Shown here one piece after another: positions 10,371 through 56,536 of a DNA stretch of 64,000 bases. The position numbers and the translations under genes are program-made. The stretch comes from Candidatus Falkowbacteria bacterium RIFOXYA2_FULL_47_19 (GTDB lineage Bacteria > Patescibacteriota > Patescibacteriia > Patescibacteriales > UBA12075), in the NCBI GenBank assembly GCA_001780275.1, contig MFGB01000020.1:168813-232812 (forward strand), written 5' to 3'. The first letter of the stretch is position 1, and every line of letters begins with the position of its first letter. The notes beneath the pieces are model-generated. The model made no database searches and was not told where the DNA came from. It saw only the letters and a list, made by a program, of their open reading frames with translations.

Positions 10371-11306
10371 ATGAAACTATTCAATCGTATGATAACGGCT
10401 TCCCTGGAGATTTTGCCGGAATCATTGGTTAAACCACTGATATATCCGCTCGTGGCCAAAAATTATGTCGCCGGACCGACGATTAAAGACGCTGTCGGTC
10501 GGACAAAAATCATTAACGCGCGCGGCGCCGAAGCCACGATCGATCATCTGGGCGAAGAAGCTCGAGATAAACGTGAAGTCGAGCAAAATATCAGGGTATA
10601 CGAAAGCATTATCCGCGCCATAAACCTAGAGAACCTAAGGGCTAGTATCGCTATTAAACCGACTAATTTCGGGCTGCGTTTCGATCCAAACTTTTGTCGG
10701 GAGGCCATGCGCGACATCATCTTAGCCGCCGCCGAGAAGAAAATATTTACCTGGATAGACATGGAGAATTCATCCACCACCTCCGCCACGATCGATTTTT
10801 ACCTGGAAGCCCAGTGGGAGTTCGGCGATCTTGTCGGAATGGCGCTTCAGGCTTATCTGCGGCGCAGTTTATCCGATATATGCTATATCAGGAAAAATAT
10901 CCATCATGGTGTGCCACATATCCGTCTATGCAAGGGAATCTACAACGAAGCGCCCGCCATAGCCATTAAAGAAATGCCGCTAATCAATCTGAATTATTAC
11001 ACGCTTCTGGAGAGCTTGATCTCCATCGGCTCGTATGTCGGTGTTGCCACGCACGATCCCGTCCGGATAAGCGAAGCCATCCAGTTGATCAAAAAATATA
11101 AAGCGCAAAAAAGATGCGAATTCCAGATGCTTTTGGGAGTGGAAAATCCCCCTCTTTACGCCCTTATTAAAAGCGGTTATCGCTGGTTGGTTTATGTTCC
11201 TTTCGGAATCAAATGGTACGGTTATTCCTTGAGGCGGTTTAAGGAAAACCCGCAAATCGTCGGCTATATCCTGAAAAATATGCTTAAGAATCGCAAGTAT
11301 AAATGA
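10371..11306 (+). CDS. monofunctional proline dehydrogenase
   Basis: PRODH-family pattern: IDHLGEEA, ALQAYLRRS, RLCKGIY, VATHD, FQMLLG, YVPFG..Y..RRF.ENP. SD GGGGAGG upstream. Confidence 0.85.
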   Translation: MKLFNRMITASLEILPESLVKPLIYPLVAKNYVAGPTIKDAVGRTKIINARGAEATIDHLGEEARDKREVEQNIRVYESIIRAINLENLRASIAIKPTNFGLRFDPNFCREAMRDIILAAAEKKIFTWIDMENSSTTSATIDFYLEAQWEFGDLVGMALQAYLRRSLSDICYIRKNIHHGVPHIRLCKGIYNEAPAIAIKEMPLINLNYYTLLESLISIGSYVGVATHDPVRISEAIQLIKKYKAQKRCEFQMLLGVENPPLYALIKSGYRWLVYVPFGIKWYGYSLRRFKENPQIVGYILKNMLKNRKYK

Positions 11307-50068: not shown

Positions 50069-50263
50069 TTATTTGAAAAATTCCACCATCGCCTCGTCCG
50101 GTATGGCTCCGCAGTTAAAATCGAAAGACCGGTAAGTTATGCCGTTTACGGTCGCTCGTTCATAACGGGTGCGGTCTTTGATCAGCCGCTGTAGACGGGT
50201 TAAATTAAGGTTCGGTTCCCATTTTACTTTATTTTCGGTTTTATCCCTGATCACGGTGATCAT
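50069..50263 (-). CDS. ThiS/MoaD-like beta-grasp protein without C-terminal Gly-Gly (paralog 2)
   Basis: 64 aa. Alignable with the neighbouring 65-aa protein (MITV...W.P.L.L......VNG....DF....IPD.A). Ends ...VEFFK. GGAGGAG SD upstream. Confidence 0.45.
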   Translation of the reverse strand: MITVIRDKTENKVKWEPNLNLTRLQRLIKDRTRYERATVNGITYRSFDFNCGAIPDEAMVEFFK

Positions 50264-50283
50264 GGCCGACTCCTCCGCGACGT

Positions 50284-50481
50284 TCAGCCTCCGGCTATGG
50301 ACATAAGTTTTATAACGGCTCCGTCGGGTATTATGTGATTTTCGAAATCTTTCCTGGCTATTCCCCGGCCGTTCACGTAAATAAGTCCGACCGGAGCTAT
50401 GATCTTCAAATCCGTGAGCATTTGCTTCAGGCTTAAATCCGGCCGCCAGGGATAGTTCGCGCCTTCAACCGTGATCATCAT
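50284..50481 (-). CDS. ThiS/MoaD-like beta-grasp protein ending in Gly-Gly (paralog 1)
   Basis: 65 aa. Has the VNG....D..L.DGD/A-type pattern and a C-terminal ...SIAGG. Overlaps the aor stop by 17 nt. Confidence 0.55.
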   Translation of the reverse strand: MMITVEGANYPWRPDLSLKQMLTDLKIIAPVGLIYVNGRGIARKDFENHIIPDGAVIKLMSIAGG

Positions 50482-52771
50482 TTTTTTCTTTCCGGCGCGT
50501 TTTTTGGTAAGCTTGCCAGACCTCTTTCACGCCTGGAAGGTTGTAAAGTTTTAGGAGTTTCAGAGTCTTCAGGGTCGGCACGCCGTCGGGGTTATAACCG
50601 CGTTTTTTGTACACGACATTTTTCAGTTCTTCATAGGCGGAGATCCGATAACGCCGCAGTATTCCCACTTTTAGCCTGGTTTCGGTATTTTTCATGCTCA
50701 GAACCATGAATTCCGTAAAAGCCGCATCTACAGCTTCGGCTGAAGACAGATCCAGTTTATCGAAGTTCTTGATAAAGCGGGATGCGTTTTTCAATGATTC
50801 GGCTTTATCACAGGGCCACTCAGACGAAACCGCTTTTGCCAGATCATTATCATAATTTTCTTCGTCGTGCAGATACTCCTCGATTGTCGCCGGACCCATC
50901 GCCCGGTAGGGAATAGCGTCGTGCTGTCTCCGACCGTAACCCATGCGCAGATTAAAGAGGCGGTGGAAAGTATAGCCTTGGCGGCTATTCGCGAGTATTT
51001 CGTCAACGGTCATGTTCTTGCCGGTAACCGTGTTCCAAAGGTCGCGGTATCTTTCGACATGTCCCATGACCTTGGCCGGTTCCGCGCTTTGTTTGTTATC
51101 TGCCGGTTCGATATCGTTCCAGGGCAGTTTACATAGCCCGACCTTTTGGAACCAGTCGCGCCACTCGGCGAACCATCTGAGATAATCGGCCTTTTGCCGG
51201 AAGGACGGCATGCGGTTATGGATCATGTCCGAGAAGATATGCCAGCCTTCGTGGTGCTGGTTCTTGTTGGCGAGGCCGTAGCCGCCCTGCTGGGCGAGCG
51301 AGCGCTTGGTGATGTACATGGAAAATTCCATGCCCTTGCTTGCCATCGCGATATCGTTTATAAGAGCGGTCTGTTTTTCGCTTAGATTCCGGTCGGCGAT
51401 GATCGCCTGTTTCAGGCGTTCAACGCCTAAACCGGCCAAGCGTCCGAAGCCCTGTCCCTCGGCTATCAGGTGCAGTAGTGCCAGAGCCGCCCGTTCGTTG
51501 CCGAAGCACAGGTCTAGACCTTGGACATAGGCCGCGTCGATCAAGCCGTGTTCAAAACAATCCATGGCAAAACCGATGGTCACGCCGGCGGAGATCGTGT
51601 CGAGGCCGTAAGCGTCGCAATAAAGATTGAACTCGATGATCGCGTCCGGCGAAAAAATACCCTGAGTGGTGCAGGCGCCGATTGTCTCGTATTCAGGACC
51701 ATCCACGAAAAATTCTTTCCCGTGGAACGGTCCGGTCTTCGGGACAAAGCCCTTGATGCCGTGTGCGCAGGCCAGTTTGCATCCCTTCCAACAGCCGTCA
51801 AAACCTTTGTCAAAGCGCTTTTCAAAAACATCTTCGTAAAGACCGGCCGCATCCGGGTGGCTGCCCAGGGAAAAATTATTGACCGGCAGGCACTTGGCGT
51901 CGTTCATGTATTTGACGATGTGCGTCGTTCCGACAACGGACATCCGGTTCATCTTCGGATCGCGTTCGTCGATTTCGCGGTTATACCATTGAATGGTTTT
52001 TAGCAGGGCTTCGCGGTCAGCAGGATCATTGTCGCTTATTTTGAGGCTATCCCAGCGTCCGACGATGGCTTTGATATTTTTTTGCGCCATGACGGTGCCG
52101 TTGCCGTTCCGGCCCGCCTGCTTTAAACGATGCCGGCCGCGTTTAGCATCGTACCAGCTGATGTTAATGCAGCCGAAGTTGGAATTTTTTGCGCCCGGTC
52201 CGGTTGATACCACGGAAATATTTTCCGGGTGTTCAGGGTCAAAGAATTCCGCGAGTCCGGCGGTCAATCCGTAAGAATCATCAGGCAAACCCGAACACTC
52301 GTAAAATTCCAGGCGGCTATTCACGCCGTCGATAAAAATTACGGTTTCGCGGCTCGCGATTCCGGAAACTGCCATCGCGTCAAAGCCGGAAAATTTCATA
52401 AAAGCCCCGAAGTAGCCGCCGACATTGGAGTCTCCGGCCAGCCCGGATAAAGGAGAAATTGAAGTGACAATGCTTTTGCCGGCGCCGGGAAAACCGGGCG
52501 TTCCGCAAAGAGGACCGGAAGCGATACAAAGGGTGTTCTCCGGATCGTTCCATTTCGTCGGACCATCCGGATGCTCAATGCCGCGTACCGCCTCCCAAAG
52601 GAGCCAGAGATTAAAGCCGCTTCCGCCGATAAAGATATCCTTTATCTTTCCTGGATAGTCTTCAGAGCGGAGCGATAGGTCATCGAGCTTTATCTTGAGA
52701 AACCGATCGGTATACCCGTTCTTTACCGGTTGTCGGACATAAGGTTCGCTTTTTATCAGCTTTAACTCCAT
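50465..52771 (-). CDS. aor: aldehyde:ferredoxin oxidoreductase family (tungsto/molybdopterin) enzyme, long form (768 aa)
   Basis: AFOR N-terminal domain; GPEYETIGACT (EYET); CDAYGLDTISAG (DxxGLD pterin motif); Cys cluster GCWKGCKLAC; C-terminal KKRGYNPDGVPT. AAAGGAGGG SD upstream. Confidence 0.9.
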   Translation of the reverse strand: MELKLIKSEPYVRQPVKNGYTDRFLKIKLDDLSLRSEDYPGKIKDIFIGGSGFNLWLLWEAVRGIEHPDGPTKWNDPENTLCIASGPLCGTPGFPGAGKSIVTSISPLSGLAGDSNVGGYFGAFMKFSGFDAMAVSGIASRETVIFIDGVNSRLEFYECSGLPDDSYGLTAGLAEFFDPEHPENISVVSTGPGAKNSNFGCINISWYDAKRGRHRLKQAGRNGNGTVMAQKNIKAIVGRWDSLKISDNDPADREALLKTIQWYNREIDERDPKMNRMSVVGTTHIVKYMNDAKCLPVNNFSLGSHPDAAGLYEDVFEKRFDKGFDGCWKGCKLACAHGIKGFVPKTGPFHGKEFFVDGPEYETIGACTTQGIFSPDAIIEFNLYCDAYGLDTISAGVTIGFAMDCFEHGLIDAAYVQGLDLCFGNERAALALLHLIAEGQGFGRLAGLGVERLKQAIIADRNLSEKQTALINDIAMASKGMEFSMYITKRSLAQQGGYGLANKNQHHEGWHIFSDMIHNRMPSFRQKADYLRWFAEWRDWFQKVGLCKLPWNDIEPADNKQSAEPAKVMGHVERYRDLWNTVTGKNMTVDEILANSRQGYTFHRLFNLRMGYGRRQHDAIPYRAMGPATIEEYLHDEENYDNDLAKAVSSEWPCDKAESLKNASRFIKNFDKLDLSSAEAVDAAFTEFMVLSMKNTETRLKVGILRRYRISAYEELKNVVYKKRGYNPDGVPTLKTLKLLKLYNLPGVKEVWQAYQKTRRKEKNDDHG

Positions 52772-52832
52772 TTATCACCCTCCTTTTGATAAACAAGCCC
52801 CGGCTTAAGATGTCCAGGGCTTTTCATGTTTT

Positions 52833-54155
52833 TTATAGGCTTTTCTTGATAATCCGGATCGCTTCGTCCACATTCTCTTTGGTGAATGTGAGTGGAGGCC
52901 GGAAGCGGACAGAGTAGGTACCGCAGGATAAAGTAGCCAAACCGTTATCCCAGGCTTTGCGCCGGAATTCGTTCCGCGTCGCCGCGTCTTTGAAGTCAAA
53001 GGCGATCATAAGGCCGCGGCCGCGGATATTTTGAGCGTGCTTCGGGTCGTAAACCTCGGCGCGAAGCTTGTCCAGAAAATATTTACCGACCGTGGCCGCG
53101 TTGGCGACCAGATTGTCTTCGCAAATGATCTCGAGGTAGCGGGCTCCGCGCAGGAAATCCGCCAGATTCGCGCCCCAGGTGGAATTGATACGCCCGGACT
53201 TACGGAAGACGTTATCGGGAACTTCGTCCACGCGTTCGGTCGCCATAATCCCGCAAACCTGGGTTTTTTTTCCAAAAACCAGAATATCCGGTGTTACCCC
53301 GAAATGTTCGTAAGCCCACATCCTGCCGGTCAGGCCAACGCCGGTTTGCACCTCATCAAAAATCAGCATGATATCGTTGTCATCGCATTTTTGCCTTAGG
53401 GCTTTAAAAAAACAGGGACGGAAGTGGTTATCACCGCCTTCGCCCTGGATCGGTTCCAGGATGAGCGCCGCGATCTCCTGTCGCCGCATGGCTCGGTCGA
53501 TCTGGATCATTGCTTCCCGCTCGGCGCGTTGCACGCTAGTCGCGTTGCTTATCCGGCCGTCTTTGCCGAAACGAATTTTCGGGTTTGTGATCCTCGGCCA
53601 GTCAAATTTCGGAAAATATTCGGTTTTGACCGGATCGGTATTGGTTAGGGACAGGGTGTAGCCAAGGCGTCCGTGAAAGGCTTCTTTCAGATGCAATACG
53701 CCATATCCGGCCTTAGGAGGCAGGAAATTCGCATTCATCTCCTTGCGCGTCCGCCAGTCAAAAGCGACCTTTAAGGCATTACCGATTGCGGGTGCGCCGC
53801 CAGCTACAAAAAACATATATTTAAATTCTGCTGGTTTAGCGAACTCCGCGAAAGTTTTAACGGCCCAGGCGTATTCCGGACAGTAGATATCAGAGTTAGA
53901 CGGGTTGGCGATTGTGGCCCGAAACAAAGCTTTAAGAAAATCATCGTAAAACAGCTTGGGGTGGTTGTGTCCGATCGGCAAAGACGCGAAATAGCTATAA
54001 CAATCAAGTATTTCCTGACCGGTCACGGCATCAACTATATAGTTATCGTGGCTTTTGACGAGGTCAATCACGGTATGAAAACCGTCAACCAGTATATATT
54101 TTCCTAAGGTGTCCAAAACTTCCGCGGGCGGTATTTGGTATTTCACGTTTTCCAT
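52833..54155 (-). CDS. lat: L-lysine 6-transaminase (class-III PLP aminotransferase, LAT family)
   Basis: Blocks shared with characterised LAT: HGR.GYTLSLTNT, FPKFDWPRI, EPIQGEGGD.HFRP.FF, LIFDEVQTG.GLTG..WAY, FGKKTQVCG (PLP Lys), R.NSTWG.NL, RGRGLM.AF, VRFRPPLT. Confidence 0.9.
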   Translation of the reverse strand: MENVKYQIPPAEVLDTLGKYILVDGFHTVIDLVKSHDNYIVDAVTGQEILDCYSYFASLPIGHNHPKLFYDDFLKALFRATIANPSNSDIYCPEYAWAVKTFAEFAKPAEFKYMFFVAGGAPAIGNALKVAFDWRTRKEMNANFLPPKAGYGVLHLKEAFHGRLGYTLSLTNTDPVKTEYFPKFDWPRITNPKIRFGKDGRISNATSVQRAEREAMIQIDRAMRRQEIAALILEPIQGEGGDNHFRPCFFKALRQKCDDNDIMLIFDEVQTGVGLTGRMWAYEHFGVTPDILVFGKKTQVCGIMATERVDEVPDNVFRKSGRINSTWGANLADFLRGARYLEIICEDNLVANAATVGKYFLDKLRAEVYDPKHAQNIRGRGLMIAFDFKDAATRNEFRRKAWDNGLATLSCGTYSVRFRPPLTFTKENVDEAIRIIKKSL

Positions 54156-54243
54156 TTTTCCATCCTCTCTTTCCTTGCATGCAAAAACACCGAATTAATT
54201 TTCAAAGACCTTTTTAAAAAATTTTTATCTTAAATTTTCCCTT

Positions 54244-54272
54244 ATTTTATAATAATTACCCAGTCCCGTCAA
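54244..54272 (-). promoter_or_regulatory. promoter TTGACG-17-TAAAAT (minus strand) for the lat-aor operon
   Basis: -35 at 54272-54267 and -10 at 54249-54244. GAGGATGG SD before the ATG at 54155. Confidence 0.55.
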
Positions 54273-54284
54273 GATAAAAGTCAA

Positions 54285-54576
54285 ACAAAAAACCCCGGAT
54301 ATAAGGGTTTTGGCAAAAAGAAAAGATTGAGAGTTTTTTTGTTTGATTGAAGTTTGTTGATTTGTGTTGTTTGGGGTTTTAGGGGGTTTGGTGTTGTTTG
54401 GGGGATTTTTATGGTTTTGGGTAATGTCGGTGTTTTTTGGGTTTTTGAGGGTTGGTTTTTTGTTGGGGAAATAAGTTAAAGTACGTGGGTACGGTTCCAG
54501 TCTCTTAAAAGCGCAGAACCGTACCCGCGGACCTATTGTCTATTTCCTTTTCAAACTTCAATCTACTCTCAATCTT
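54285..54576 (-). ncRNA. candidate novel ~290-nt C/A-rich structured RNA
   Basis: Has its own promoter (54583-54610) and terminator (54289-54311). Two perfect 12-bp helices pair 54565-54576 with 54323-54334 and 54552-54563 with 54345-54356. A 13-bp hairpin lies at 54485-54528. A ~110-nt tract (54357-54468) has a single G on this strand. No ORF exceeds ~20 codons. Confidence 0.55.
54289..54311 (-). terminator. intrinsic terminator (minus strand) of the candidate RNA
   Basis: On the minus strand: AAAACCC-ttatatccg-GGGUUUU followed by UUGUUUG. Confidence 0.55.
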
Positions 54577-54582
54577 ACTATT

Positions 54583-54610
54583 AATATACTCTTGTTATTT
54601 ATATTGTCAA
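54583..54610 (-). promoter_or_regulatory. promoter TTGACA-16-TATATT (minus strand)
   Basis: -35 at 54610-54605 and -10 at 54588-54583. The predicted TSS (~54576) coincides with the first base of the 5' helix arm. Confidence 0.6.
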
Positions 54611-54686
54611 GAGACTAATATTAAATAAAAAAATACGAAAAAAATAAAATAATAAAAATAAATAAAAGTTATCCACAGGCCTGACG

Positions 54687-55238
54687 TTAATTTTGTTCTT
54701 TTATGCATTCTTCTGCCTGTTCACTGATCCGGCCGCCTAACTTATTAAGATTAATTCCATTTTTTTGTAAATTATGCAGTTTTTCTTTTAAAGCCTGTCT
54801 TATTAATTCGCCCTGTTCCATAATATCTCCAATAGACTCGCTTTTTTCTACGACCATAGCGGCTATTTCTTCTGCCAGATAGCCGATATAATCCTCTATA
54901 AGATTATCGGCCGGAAATTCACCTTTTTTGCTGATATAACTTTCAATCGCCTGTTTTTTGGCTAATTTAAATACCCGCCATCTTAATTCTTCCTGATCTT
55001 TTATAGTTTCTTCGTCCAGGCCCGCCAAAGAGTTTTCCATCTTAATAAAAATATCTTTTATGCCCTGATGCAGGCGATTATCATTAAGATCCATGAATCT
55101 ATCTAAGAGATTATTATGAAAAAATTGTTTTTTCAATATAAGATTGGCCAATTCATCGGTAGCGTTGGCTATTGCCGCTTTTATTTTTTCTTCGTCGCTT
55201 ATCTCTAATTTTCTTTCTTCGAATTTATTTTTAACCAT
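54687..55238 (-). CDS. hypothetical all-alpha/coiled-coil protein (AT-rich gene)
   Basis: 183-aa ORF, Glu/Lys/Ile/Asn-rich, no recognisable motif. Confidence 0.55.
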   Translation of the reverse strand: MVKNKFEERKLEISDEEKIKAAIANATDELANLILKKQFFHNNLLDRFMDLNDNRLHQGIKDIFIKMENSLAGLDEETIKDQEELRWRVFKLAKKQAIESYISKKGEFPADNLIEDYIGYLAEEIAAMVVEKSESIGDIMEQGELIRQALKEKLHNLQKNGINLNKLGGRISEQAEECIKEQN

Positions 55239-55323
55239 AAATTTTGATTATTTAGCCTCTTTTATAGTATAGCAATTCTTTGCTATAATACAAATATGTT
55301 ATGATAGTTATATTGGAAAAATA

Positions 55324-55716
55324 ATGAAAACTGTTTATATTTTTGGCAATCCGCTTTTGTCTTTTGATAACCTTCCCTTAAAACTCATGCCCGATCTTGC
55401 TAAAAAATTTCCGGCTATAACATTTTTGTCCATTGACCCGAACGAGAATTTAAAATTTACAGACAAGAAACCGGTAATCATAGACACGATATTCGGCATT
55501 AAAAAAGTGGCTGTTTTGCATGATATCGATAGGATCATTACTGATAAAATCTACTCCGCCCACGATCTTGATCTGAGCTTTAACCTTAAACTTCTTGCTA
55601 AACTTGGCTATATCGAAAAAGTTACGATTTTGGGGGTGCCGCCGGGAATAAAAAAAGAAGAAGCGTTAATGCAGCTTTATCCTTTGATCGAAAGATCTTT
55701 TTCCGGTATCGAATAA
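55324..55716 (+). CDS. hydrogenase maturation endopeptidase-like protein (HycI/HyaD family)
   Basis: Collinear with HycI blocks: VYIFGNPLLSFDN (cf. VGNSMMGDDG), VIIDTIFG (cf. IVDA), SAHDLDL (cf. TTHNMPL), VTILGVPP (cf. IFLGIQP). The metal-ligand D/D/H positions are present. Confidence 0.55.
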   Translation: MKTVYIFGNPLLSFDNLPLKLMPDLAKKFPAITFLSIDPNENLKFTDKKPVIIDTIFGIKKVAVLHDIDRIITDKIYSAHDLDLSFNLKLLAKLGYIEKVTILGVPPGIKKEEALMQLYPLIERSFSGIE

Positions 55717-55729
55717 AGCGAGAATCTTT

Positions 55730-56536
55730 ATGAAGACCAAGCAAACCAAATTAATAGAATTTAAAAACCGCCAGGGCGAAATTCTGCGCGGCATATTGAC
55801 CTTTAACCGTTACAGCAACCCGCAACTGGTAGTTATGATGGCTGGTTTTGAAAGAACAGCAACCGGCGAAAAAAAATTTAAGGCCTTAGCCGACGCTTTG
55901 GTCGCCCAGGATATTCCGTCATTTCGTTTTGATCACACGGGCATTGGTTTGTCGGACGGTGATTTTTCTAAAATAAATACAGCCGGGTTAGGAGACGAGC
56001 TTGTCCGCGCCGTTCGGGCCGCAAAAAAGAAACTGAGCTTTGAGGGCGTGGCTTATTTCGCCCACAGCCTCCCGCCCTGTGTTATGGCGGATGAAAAAAA
56101 ACGAAATCTGTTTAAAAAAATAATATTCATGTCCCCGGCCCTGAATCAGAAGGAGCTTCTGCGTTACTGGTTCACGCAAAAAGCCATGAAAAAAGTCCGG
56201 CCGCAAACCAAAATAACCTGGAATAATTATAAAAAATACCTTAATGAAAATGATTTCTTGGAATATTGCCGCCAGAAGCAAAAAATAACCAAGGCGCATT
56301 ACGTCGGCAGCGAATATTTCCTGGAAAACAGCCGACAGGACTATTCCTCCCAGATCCCCGACTCGGAAAACATCCTCCACATCCATGGGGAAAAAGACGA
56401 GGTGGTGCCCATAAACAGCCTGAACGTAAAATTTAAGAACAGGATAATGGTGCCGGAGGGCGATCACGACCTGGAGAGTCCGGACCTGTTATCGCAATGG
56501 CTTGTTCCGGCGGTAAACTTTCTTAAGAACGATTAG
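55730..56536 (+). CDS. alpha/beta-hydrolase-fold protein
   Basis: Nucleophile-elbow-like YFAHSLPP (AxSxP rather than GxSxG), GEKDEVVP, GDHDL (His). Confidence 0.65.
   Translation: MKTKQTKLIEFKNRQGEILRGILTFNRYSNPQLVVMMAGFERTATGEKKFKALADALVAQDIPSFRFDHTGIGLSDGDFSKINTAGLGDELVRAVRAAKKKLSFEGVAYFAHSLPPCVMADEKKRNLFKKIIFMSPALNQKELLRYWFTQKAMKKVRPQTKITWNNYKKYLNENDFLEYCRQKQKITKAHYVGSEYFLENSRQDYSSQIPDSENILHIHGEKDEVVPINSLNVKFKNRIMVPEGDHDLESPDLLSQWLVPAVNFLKND

Follow-up and report, generated by a model that had tools for sequence, protein, structure and literature searches.

The classical route of lysine oxidation by L-lysine 6-transaminase (LAT) and piperideine-6-carboxylate dehydrogenase (Pcd) is represented by lat and pcd of Streptomyces clavuligerus and Flavobacterium lutescens, and by Rv3290c of Mycobacterium tuberculosis. 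Glutaric semialdehyde is a C5 semialdehyde that is linked to lysine breakdown. Among the tungsten-type oxidoreductases (the WOR family), FOR has been proposed to oxidize glutaric semialdehyde, which is the nearest precedent for the chemistry that we propose here, and GAPOR is a Class I WOR that is dedicated to one pathway, in which it takes the place of an NAD(P) dehydrogenase. Here we describe a four-gene operon from Candidatus Falkowbacteria bacterium RIFOXYA2_FULL_47_19, a member of the candidate phyla radiation (CPR), in which lat is followed by the gene for an aldehyde oxidoreductase (AOR) of the WOR family and by two small genes, worX and orf4. The operon lies on the minus strand of the 64-kb stretch of contig MFGB01000020.1 (positions 168,813 to 232,812) that we analyzed, which we will call the window.

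We propose that this operon is a lysine-oxidation module that comprises LAT, an AOR that replaces Pcd, and accessory proteins for cofactor maturation, with the AOR gene acquired from a Desulfobacterota-like donor. Taken as a whole, we consider this proposal about evenly balanced between right and wrong. LAT would catalyze the transfer of L-lysine's epsilon-amino group to 2-oxoglutarate, yielding glutamate and 2-aminoadipate 6-semialdehyde (AASA), which would be in equilibrium with piperideine-6-carboxylate (P6C). The AOR, as a Class I enzyme with tungstopterin and a [4Fe-4S] cluster, would oxidize AASA to 2-aminoadipate and pass the two electrons to a ferredoxin that is encoded elsewhere. It would take the place of the NAD-dependent Pcd, as GAPOR does for GAPDH. 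WorX would be a sulfur carrier or a maturation factor that helps to build or insert the pyranopterin cofactor of the AOR, and orf4 would be a lineage-specific and dispensable duplicate that lacks the C-terminal Gly-Gly. From the structure of the operon and from gene neighbors across the AOR's clade, we infer that the AOR probably oxidizes the lysine-derived semialdehyde with reduction of ferredoxin. LAT, Class I WORs, and WorX are each known kinds of protein, and the arrangement of an AOR with a small beta-grasp protein has been published.

The transaminase

The first gene (lat, 54155-52833, minus strand) encodes a class-III aminotransferase (pyridoxal phosphate-dependent) of 440 amino acids. 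Its identity as a bona fide L-lysine 6-transaminase, with the activity that this implies, is a prediction from sequence, but it is well supported. The protein scores 551.5 bits against TIGR03251 (L-lysine 6-transaminase, EC 2.6.1.36), which is above the equivalog cutoff of 520.8 bits, while it reaches just 233 bits against the GABA-AT family model (cutoff 567) and falls far under the cutoffs of all other class-III families. It aligns over its full length (residues 10-439) to the LAT of M. tuberculosis (2CIN; E = 8.6e-124, about 50% identity), which is the sole strong match among solved structures; the next family is GABA-AT, at 1e-49. F167, R170, E243, D271, Q274, K300, N328, T330, and R422 of the M. 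tuberculosis enzyme, which we take to be the residues that bind PLP and substrate, among them the lysine of the Schiff base and the "glutamate switch," are all identical in the window's protein. The nearest homologs from outside the CPR are 55-60% identical, and those that are named by their source are annotated as L-lysine 6-transaminase. Because the family model, the structure match, the conserved residues, and the homologs agree, we conclude that the protein groups with LAT and not with other omega-transaminases, as had been suggested in an earlier reading of the sequence without database searches (hereafter, the sequence-only reading).

The oxidoreductase

The second gene (worL or aor, 52771-50465, minus strand) encodes a protein of 768 amino acids that is apparently a competent WOR large subunit, and we predict that it is a tungstopterin/[4Fe-4S] enzyme. 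It contains both domains of the family (AFOR_N, PF02730, E = 1.1e-41; AFOR_C, PF01314, E = 8.9e-83), and in a fold search, WOR structures were the sole matches. It has the Class I architecture of a lone WorL: besides aor itself, the operon contains just lat and the genes for the two small beta-grasp proteins, and no gene for a WorS polyferredoxin or for WorABC/N is adjacent.

The sequence-only reading assigned the protein to this family but left its cofactor-binding residues to be checked on an alignment. We used an alignment of 139 sequences from the protein's clade, with the AOR of Pyrococcus furiosus (PfAOR) as the reference, and found that the cluster cysteines are in place, as are the residues for catalysis and pterin binding. 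The four cysteines of the [4Fe-4S] cluster (C288, C291, C295, and C494 in PfAOR) correspond to C327, C331, C335, and C547 in the window's AOR and are found in 139 of 139 sequences. T243, E313, Y427, and H448 have been named as second-shell catalytic residues that are conserved in aldehyde-oxidizing WORs (PMC13328260); they correspond to T282, E362, Y486, and H506 and are conserved in 137-139 of the 139 sequences. More broadly, the catalytic or pterin-binding residues T243, Y312, E313, D338, Y427, and H448 of PfAOR are all retained, and R76 and R182 are replaced by lysine. The first DxxGL(C/D) pterin motif is intact (D386...GLD391).

Two features of the protein had stood out from the sequence alone. 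Its CxxxCxxxC motif (C327-x3-C331-x3-C335) does differ from the CxxCxxxC of PfAOR by a one-residue insertion, and this is so throughout the clade. Its extra length is also real, but it is partly typical of the clade, whose members usually have 706-719 amino acids. The remainder is specific to the lineage: a 41-residue insert (652-692), a 6-residue insert (66-71), and nine additional C-terminal residues. The 41-residue insert is helical in an AF2 model, with low confidence. Because two segments of this model are weak (477-567 and 619-700; pTM 0.77 overall), we left it out of any analysis of the substrate pocket.

The AOR belongs to a large uncharacterized clade that, by sequence comparison, is remote from the solved and characterized WORs that we considered. 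These were AOR, FOR, GAPOR, WOR5/ASOR, AorB, BamB, YdhV, and WOR83, of which GAPOR had no structure in our list of matches and was not compared directly. The best solved WORs match with 72-145 bits, 18-22% identity, and TM scores of 0.67-0.82, and by fold FOR is marginally the top match. So, when the protein is compared to the known WOR clades, as the sequence-only reading advised, it proves to be a member of the family but not a close relative of any solved or characterized member. Its own clade has at least 7,100 proteins in the database at E ≤ 1e-10, with top matches of about 850 bits and 49-51% identity, and members occur in Desulfobacterales, Clostridia, Anaerolineae, Bacteroidales, and archaea. 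The supplements of PMC13328260 contain no matching organism names by which we could place this clade in the 92-clade numbering of WORs. The length of the protein also suggested YdhV-type (Class V) membership, but its score against NF007354 is 73.5 bits, and the cutoff is 868, so we ruled this out.

The AORs from the CPR have substitutions at 53 positions that are at least 90% conserved among the other members of the clade. These include E485M and D507H, which flank the catalytic Tyr and His. Such substitutions would be in line with a changed substrate, without proving one.

Semialdehyde-forming enzymes beside the clade in other phyla

The strongest new evidence for our proposal is that genes that recur beside other members of this AOR clade encode enzymes that make or use pyrroline-5-carboxylate (P5C) or glutamate semialdehyde (GSA), or the C6 homolog. 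We took a census of genes within 3.5 kb of the AOR in 84 genome-derived and 80 metagenome-derived loci, without de-duplication. [quoted passage not shown] These genes are on the strand of the AOR, 32-700 nt upstream of it, and in the PDB they match PDH from Pyrococcus horikoshii best (1Y56_B; 3e-89 and 3e-47), with sarcosine oxidase far behind. Beside them are genes for alpha-like subunits (Pyr_redox_2/Fer2_BFD) and, in Clostridia, for a 2x[4Fe-4S] ferredoxin. A ferredoxin gene is directly upstream of the AOR at 10 genome and 10 metagenome loci, and ProC (TIGR00112, above the cutoff) has this position at 10 genome and 12 metagenome loci.

A class-III transaminase is encoded directly downstream of AOR-WorX in Anaerolineae and 3.6-4.4 kb upstream at several loci from Desulfobacterales. 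Its best PDB match is 7VNO (1.6e-121), which is presumably PH1423 from P. horikoshii. PH1423 is an ornithine/lysine delta-aminotransferase (PMC9986279). At one locus from Desulfobacterales (L002), we also found genes of hydroxyproline and proline metabolism (a HypD-like glycyl-radical enzyme, AcnX, and an OCD-family protein). Because the same AOR clade adjoins semialdehyde-forming enzymes in other phyla, the case for a semialdehyde-oxidizing AOR in the window is strengthened.

For the clade as a whole, we suggest that these WORs of about 710 amino acids may be a hitherto unrecognized family of ferredoxin-dependent oxidoreductases of amino acid semialdehydes (P5C/GSA and P6C/AASA), and that the version in Falkowbacteria may have been retuned from C5 to C6 substrates and linked to a lat that arrived by horizontal transfer. 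We put this broader idea at somewhat below even. The clade in Desulfobacterota would be tied to GSA/P5C from proline or ornithine, and in Falkowbacteria it would have been joined to a lat that was acquired separately.

Two other arrangements turned up in the census. At L018 (9116-13035) and about 20 similar loci from Desulfobacterales, the gene for ProC comes 28-160 nt before the AOR gene on the same strand, and one for a DsbD-like membrane protein comes after it. These loci could represent ferredoxin-driven biosynthesis of proline from glutamate via GSA or could equally be a legacy of a proC-yggT-divIVA neighborhood. In Fervidicola ferrireducens (L059, 6590-14065), the AOR gene lies between genes of the histidine-utilization type (formiminotransferase, amidohydrolase, and cyclodeaminase) with a ferredoxin gene, on one side, and a [FeFe]-hydrogenase-like gene. 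This hints at a direct route from the AOR via ferredoxin to H2 in amino acid fermentation.

Conservation and origin of the operon

The lat-AOR pair is found on three closely related contigs from the CPR, including the window. The nearest genome match (L005, a metagenome-assembled genome of Candidatus Falkowbacteria) encodes all four proteins, with identities of 91% for LAT, 91% for the AOR, 68% for WorX, and 80% for orf4. On the other contig (L165), LAT (84% identical) is followed by the AOR and then by WorX. L165 and a further contig, L085, share with the window the synteny of the flanking HD gene and a PAS-kinase gene, and in L165 the shared order extends to genes for a response regulator and YchF. 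A fourth related AOR (P0001, 98% identical) has no contig on record.

Beyond these relatives, the picture changes abruptly. In scans of genomes and metagenomes, identity of the AOR goes from 82-98% straight to 51%, and among about 160 AOR loci, we found lat adjacent to a WOR at none from outside this CPR lineage, nor did we find a WOR beside the LAT homologs of other lineages. The sequence-only reading had called for a survey of whether lat and aor occur together in other genomes: they do in L005 and L165, but not beyond one narrow lineage. As LAT homologs elsewhere do not adjoin WORs, the lat-AOR junction seems to have been assembled in this CPR lineage and to be restricted to it.

In a rough neighbor-joining tree, the pair of CPR AORs is nested within the Desulfobacterales part of the clade. 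The GC content of the operon and its GC at third codon positions (GC3) are within the range of the host, which rules out, by composition, an island of recent horizontal transfer. Given the drop in identity from 82% to 51%, the nesting in the tree, and the host-like GC and GC3, we suggest that the AOR gene was acquired horizontally long ago, probably from a Desulfobacterota-like donor.

Two small beta-grasp proteins

The genes after aor encode a ThiS-like beta-grasp protein of 65 amino acids that ends in IAGG (worX, 50481-50284, minus strand) and a paralog of 64 amino acids without the C-terminal Gly-Gly (orf4, 50263-50069, minus strand). By itself, WorX is a weak match to ThiS, with scores under the cutoff for both Pfam (E = 0.014) and TIGR01683 (6e-4). 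A profile of 37 WorX orthologs gives much clearer matches to E. coli ThiS (1F0Z, 7.7e-13) and to SAMP2/PF1061 (about 1e-10), but just about 0.02 for MoaD. The second protein, orf4, has no family match on its own, but hhalign against the WorX profile gives a probability of 89.8% (E = 1.8e-6), and orf4 and WorX are 30% identical. The homology of orf4 rests on hhalign because the confidence of its AF2 model is too low to use (pLDDT 61.6). So there are two small beta-grasp proteins, as the sequence-only reading had it. WorX has both of the marks of a ThiS/MoaD sulfur carrier, which are beta-grasp homology and the C-terminal Gly-Gly, and orf4 has the homology alone. Since orf4 ends in EFFK, it should not be able to be adenylated or thiocarboxylated.

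Small proteins like WorX are a regular companion of this clade: an open reading frame of 65-66 amino acids that ends in (I/V)AGG follows the AOR in 97 of the 139 loci with enough downstream sequence. ThiF is encoded next to the AOR of other clade members at 12 loci (such as L072 and L084), some of which (such as L072) also have MoeA. In the 64-kb window, we found no cognate E1 (ThiF/MoeB) and no sulfur acceptor (MoaE/ThiG). The pattern has been described before. MoaD genes that strictly adjoin AORs were interpreted as a mobile cluster for synthesis of the tungsten cofactor (Iyer, Burroughs and Aravind 2006; PMC1779556). The aorABCDE operon of Aromatoleum aromaticum ends in two MoaD-like genes (aorD and aorE), whose products the purified enzyme lacks; they are considered to be maturation factors for the tungsten cofactor. 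More recently, the ThiS-like neighbor of Class I WORs was named "WorX" and predicted to act in pterin biosynthesis (Putumbaka et al. 2026; PMC13328260). Because of this published pattern and the ThiF and MoeA genes beside the AOR of some clade members, WorX and orf4 are most likely accessories for cofactor maturation rather than enzymes of the pathway, and they are not a novelty of the pathway.

The number of small genes downstream of the AOR varies among the close relatives: the window and L005 (7378-7787) have both, L165 (4735-4929) has the Gly-Gly form alone, and L085 (1538-1616) has neither. Thus orf4, which is absent from L165 and L085, and even an adjacent WorX seem to be dispensable. 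Another locus (L083, 5284-5700) has two tandem proteins of 65 amino acids with the Gly-Gly after the AOR, which end in LAGG and KSGG. Its contig is labeled as Caulobacteraceae but has a Clostridia-like order of PDH, ferredoxin, and AOR, so it may be misbinned.

What the window encodes and what it lacks

The gene content of the window is that of a CPR (Patescibacteria) genome: it encodes a T4SS-type pilin, LTD/PKD surface proteins, and numerous HD proteins, with little metabolism. We searched it for missing steps by using Pfam and a scan for cysteine motifs. The sequence-only reading noted that the AOR occupies the usual place of the NAD-dependent pcd, and indeed, there is no match to the Aldedh family, and hence no aldehyde dehydrogenase (ALDH) or Pcd gene, in the operon or in any open reading frame of at least 300 amino acids in the window. 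No open reading frame anywhere in the window contains the motif CxxCxxCxxxC, and the one match that bears on hydrogenases is a weak HycI-like one (55324-55716). Because the 64 kb contain no gene for ferredoxin, hydrogenase, pterin biosynthesis, or tungstate uptake, the ferredoxin coupling and the importance for energy that had been suggested from the sequence can only be inferred.

The window also encodes a monofunctional proline dehydrogenase (Pro_dh, 10371-11306, plus strand; Pfam E = 9e-24; NF045947 6.5e-43, below the cutoff). The AOR could also supply the second step that is missing after this enzyme.

Proposed role and alternatives

Several observations count against a role of the AOR in lysine oxidation. 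The lat-AOR adjacency is confined to near relatives, with AORs that are 82-98% identical, and since it is limited to one narrow CPR lineage, it could be mere inherited synteny. Most of the informative neighbors across the clade indicate a C5 compound (P5C or GSA) and not a C6 compound, and the adjacency of ProC in Desulfobacterales may stem from a conserved proC-yggT-divIVA neighborhood instead of from function. No gene for ferredoxin, a hydrogenase large subunit, MoaA/C/E, MoeA/B, or TupABC was found in the 64-kb window, the 15-kb L005, or the 13-kb L165, nor was a gene that uses 2-aminoadipate found in these three. Within the AOR, the second DxxGL(C/D) motif retains GLC547, but its Asp (D489 of PfAOR, a pterin contact) is replaced by Q in the window's AOR and by G in 121 of the 139 sequences, and the confidence of the AF2 model is low at the active-site segment (477-567). 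In L085, whose AOR is 82% identical, an HD-domain gene follows the AOR immediately, with neither WorX nor orf4. Finally, to our knowledge, biochemistry offers no precedent for action of a WOR on an alpha-amino semialdehyde or on a cyclic imine.

These observations leave room for other roles. The AOR might have kept a presumably ancestral specificity for the conversion of GSA/P5C to glutamate, in the catabolism of proline or ornithine, with lat as a co-regulated neighbor or as an enzyme that accepts ornithine. Most of the informative neighbors in the clade form or use P5C, and the window has Pro_dh without a P5C dehydrogenase or ALDH among its open reading frames of at least 300 amino acids. 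But Pro_dh is 40 kb away, while lat is 61 nt upstream of aor and the same operon is found in three genomes. Also, the window's LAT retains all of the lysine-binding residues of the M. tuberculosis enzyme, and the AORs from the CPR have diverged next to the catalytic Tyr and His, so we consider this explanation unlikely. Alternatively, the AOR could be a Class I WOR that detoxifies a broad spectrum of aldehydes, like PfAOR, BmWOR, and CsWOR87, and its place after lat would be incidental. Three of the four characterized Class I WORs do have a broad range, and about half of the loci in the clade have no amino acid gene nearby (for example, the Desulfobacula type is beside yggT, divIVA, and a DEAD helicase). 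We find this rather unlikely, given that semialdehyde-forming enzymes are recurrent same-strand neighbors in at least four phyla and that the window's genes form a tight operon with one promoter and one terminator. A reduced CPR genome is also unlikely to retain a 2.3-kb gene with such cofactor demands for a generic role.

It is improbable, we think, that the AOR is non-functional here for want of a pterin cofactor, or that it relies on a cofactor that is scavenged from a host. Cofactor pathways are generally sparse in CPR genomes, and we found no genes for cofactor biosynthesis or tungstate uptake in about 90 kb from three relatives. Yet the catalytic and cluster residues are intact, with 82-98% identity across four relatives; WorX with its Gly-Gly is kept in three of those four; and the GC and GC3 of the operon are like those of host genes, which fits a long residence. 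Least probable of all, in our view, is that the pathway runs in reverse, so that reduced ferredoxin would drive the conversion of 2-aminoadipate to the semialdehyde, which LAT would aminate to lysine (and, where ProC is adjacent, glutamate would be converted via GSA and P5C to proline). WORs are reversible and can reduce acids, as is established for the AORs of acetogens; CPR bacteria commonly lack amino acid biosynthesis; and ProC, which is usually biosynthetic, is encoded directly upstream of the AOR at about 22 loci. However, reduction of the acid is thermodynamically uphill, 2-aminoadipate is rare as a nutrient, the neighbors of the PDH type are catabolic, and the equilibrium of LAT and the cyclization to P6C favor the forward direction.

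If the oxidation of a lysine-derived semialdehyde by this AOR is correct, then it would be a new role for the WOR family. In the searchable literature, we found no link between the AOR family and the semialdehydes of proline, ornithine, or lysine, except for the proposal about FOR and glutaric semialdehyde, and no report of a WOR in CPR bacteria. This organism would be the first CPR bacterium to depend on a tungstopterin enzyme for catabolism. A bacterium with a reduced genome would be investing in a metalloenzyme whose cofactor is expensive, which prompts one to ask how it obtains the pterin cofactor and the tungsten. For the clade as a whole, our assignment would extend tungsten biochemistry into mainstream amino acid catabolism, with ferredoxin as the acceptor for semialdehydes that are derived from proline, ornithine, or lysine. 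Anaerobes would have in this clade a counterpart of P5C dehydrogenase and Pcd that depends on tungsten, and its members would occur widely in Desulfobacterota, Clostridia, Chloroflexota, and some archaea. This would explain how strict anaerobes without an obvious P5C or P6C dehydrogenase finish these pathways, and how they save low-potential electrons as they do so. The idea can be assayed directly, and it would give a physiological role to a large orphan clade of WORs.

Transcription signals and flanking sequence

The four open reading frames lie on the minus strand just where the sequence-only reading had placed them, and its claims of a single promoter and of Shine-Dalgarno sites hold as well. 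A sigma-70-like promoter (TTGACG-17-TAAAAT, 54272-54244, minus strand) matches the consensus at 10 of 12 positions. Promoter-like sites in the region as a whole are at chance level (6 sites vs. 5.5 expected), but in an alignment with L005 and L165, both hexamers of this site are kept in the two related contigs while the sequence between them varies. A Shine-Dalgarno-like sequence precedes each of the four genes. Between lat and aor there is a gap of 61 nt, aor and worX overlap by 17 nt, and worX and orf4 are 20 nt apart. The operon is followed by a strong intrinsic terminator (50050-50028, minus strand), with a 10-bp stem that includes 6 GC pairs and then the T run TTTTATTATT.

A hairpin had also been noticed in the spacer between lat and aor, and it does exist (AAGCCCUGG...CCGGGGCUU, 9-10 bp; 52822-52795, minus strand), but it is marginal. 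Its folding energy is -19.8 kcal/mol over 76 nt, and 9 of 200 shuffled sequences fold equally well (z = -1.87). As it barely beats shuffled sequence, we do not assign a function to it.

Upstream of lat, an Rfam search found no riboswitch or known RNA. Directly upstream of the lat promoter, on the minus strand, is a candidate non-coding RNA of about 290 nt (54577-54285). It has its own promoter-like site (TTGACA-16-TATATT, matching at 11 of 12 positions, at 54610-54583) and an intrinsic terminator (54311-54289). Its predicted fold (z-score of -7.9, with no match to an Rfam family) includes an inner hairpin of 13 bp and a long-range helix. This helix encloses a C/A-rich loop of about 110 nt, in which there are several motifs of the form CCC(U)C that resemble anti-Shine-Dalgarno sequences. 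About 90% of its columns are identical with L005 and L165, where the flanking LAT proteins are 91% and 84% identical. The candidate may represent either a small RNA specific to the CPR or a leader by which the operon is controlled.

The operon is flanked by an island of low GC (about 54000-56000), with a GC of 0.356 against 0.469 over the entire window. One open reading frame in the island (54687-55238, minus strand; 183 amino acids; GC of 0.34) matches no family above threshold, but it is conserved upstream of the candidate RNA in L005 and L165. Another (55324-55716, plus strand; GC of 0.37) is weakly similar to HycI-like hydrogenase maturation proteases (E = 1e-4).

Relation to described pathways and enzymes

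The operon resembles the LAT-Pcd route in its first enzyme, which is an equivalog-level match with conserved active-site residues, and in the logic of converting lysine via AASA/P6C to 2-aminoadipate. It differs in the second enzyme, which in the classical route is an NAD-dependent P6C dehydrogenase of the ALDH family and in the window is a predicted tungstopterin/[4Fe-4S] WOR.

With the Class I WORs that are accompanied by WorX (PfAOR, PfGAPOR, BmWOR, and CsWOR87; PMC13328260), the window's AOR shares a lone WorL, a ThiS-like neighbor, T243/E313/Y427/H448, and the four cysteines. Unlike them, it is 18-22% identical to the solved WORs, is about 100-160 amino acids longer, has the CxxxCxxxC motif, and is in an operon with a transaminase; that study (PMC13328260) nowhere mentions proline, lysine, or aminotransferases. 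FOR of P. furiosus (1B25) is the top structural match (TM score of 0.81, normalized to the target), but it is 22% identical and belongs to a different clade, and no amino acid gene context is established for FOR here.

The small genes recall two described arrangements. In A. aromaticum, aorABCDE likewise has two MoaD-like genes (aorD and aorE) after the AOR gene, but it encodes a three-subunit, NAD-linked Class III WOR, whereas the window has no AorA- or AorC-like genes and its second small protein lacks the Gly-Gly. The AOR-linked MoaD cluster (PMC1779556) also has the gene for a small ubiquitin-like sulfur carrier adjoining the AOR gene. In the window, there are no genes for MoeB, MoaE, or MoaA, and the WorX profile is nearer to ThiS and SAMP2 than to MoaD.

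Finally, homologs of the beta subunit and alpha-like subunits of the archaeal dye-linked L-proline dehydrogenase (PDH of P. horikoshii, 1Y56) are the commonest upstream neighbors of the AOR clade. Genes of this type supply P5C/GSA, which is the C5 analog of the product of LAT. They are absent from the window's operon, and LAT is found in their position.

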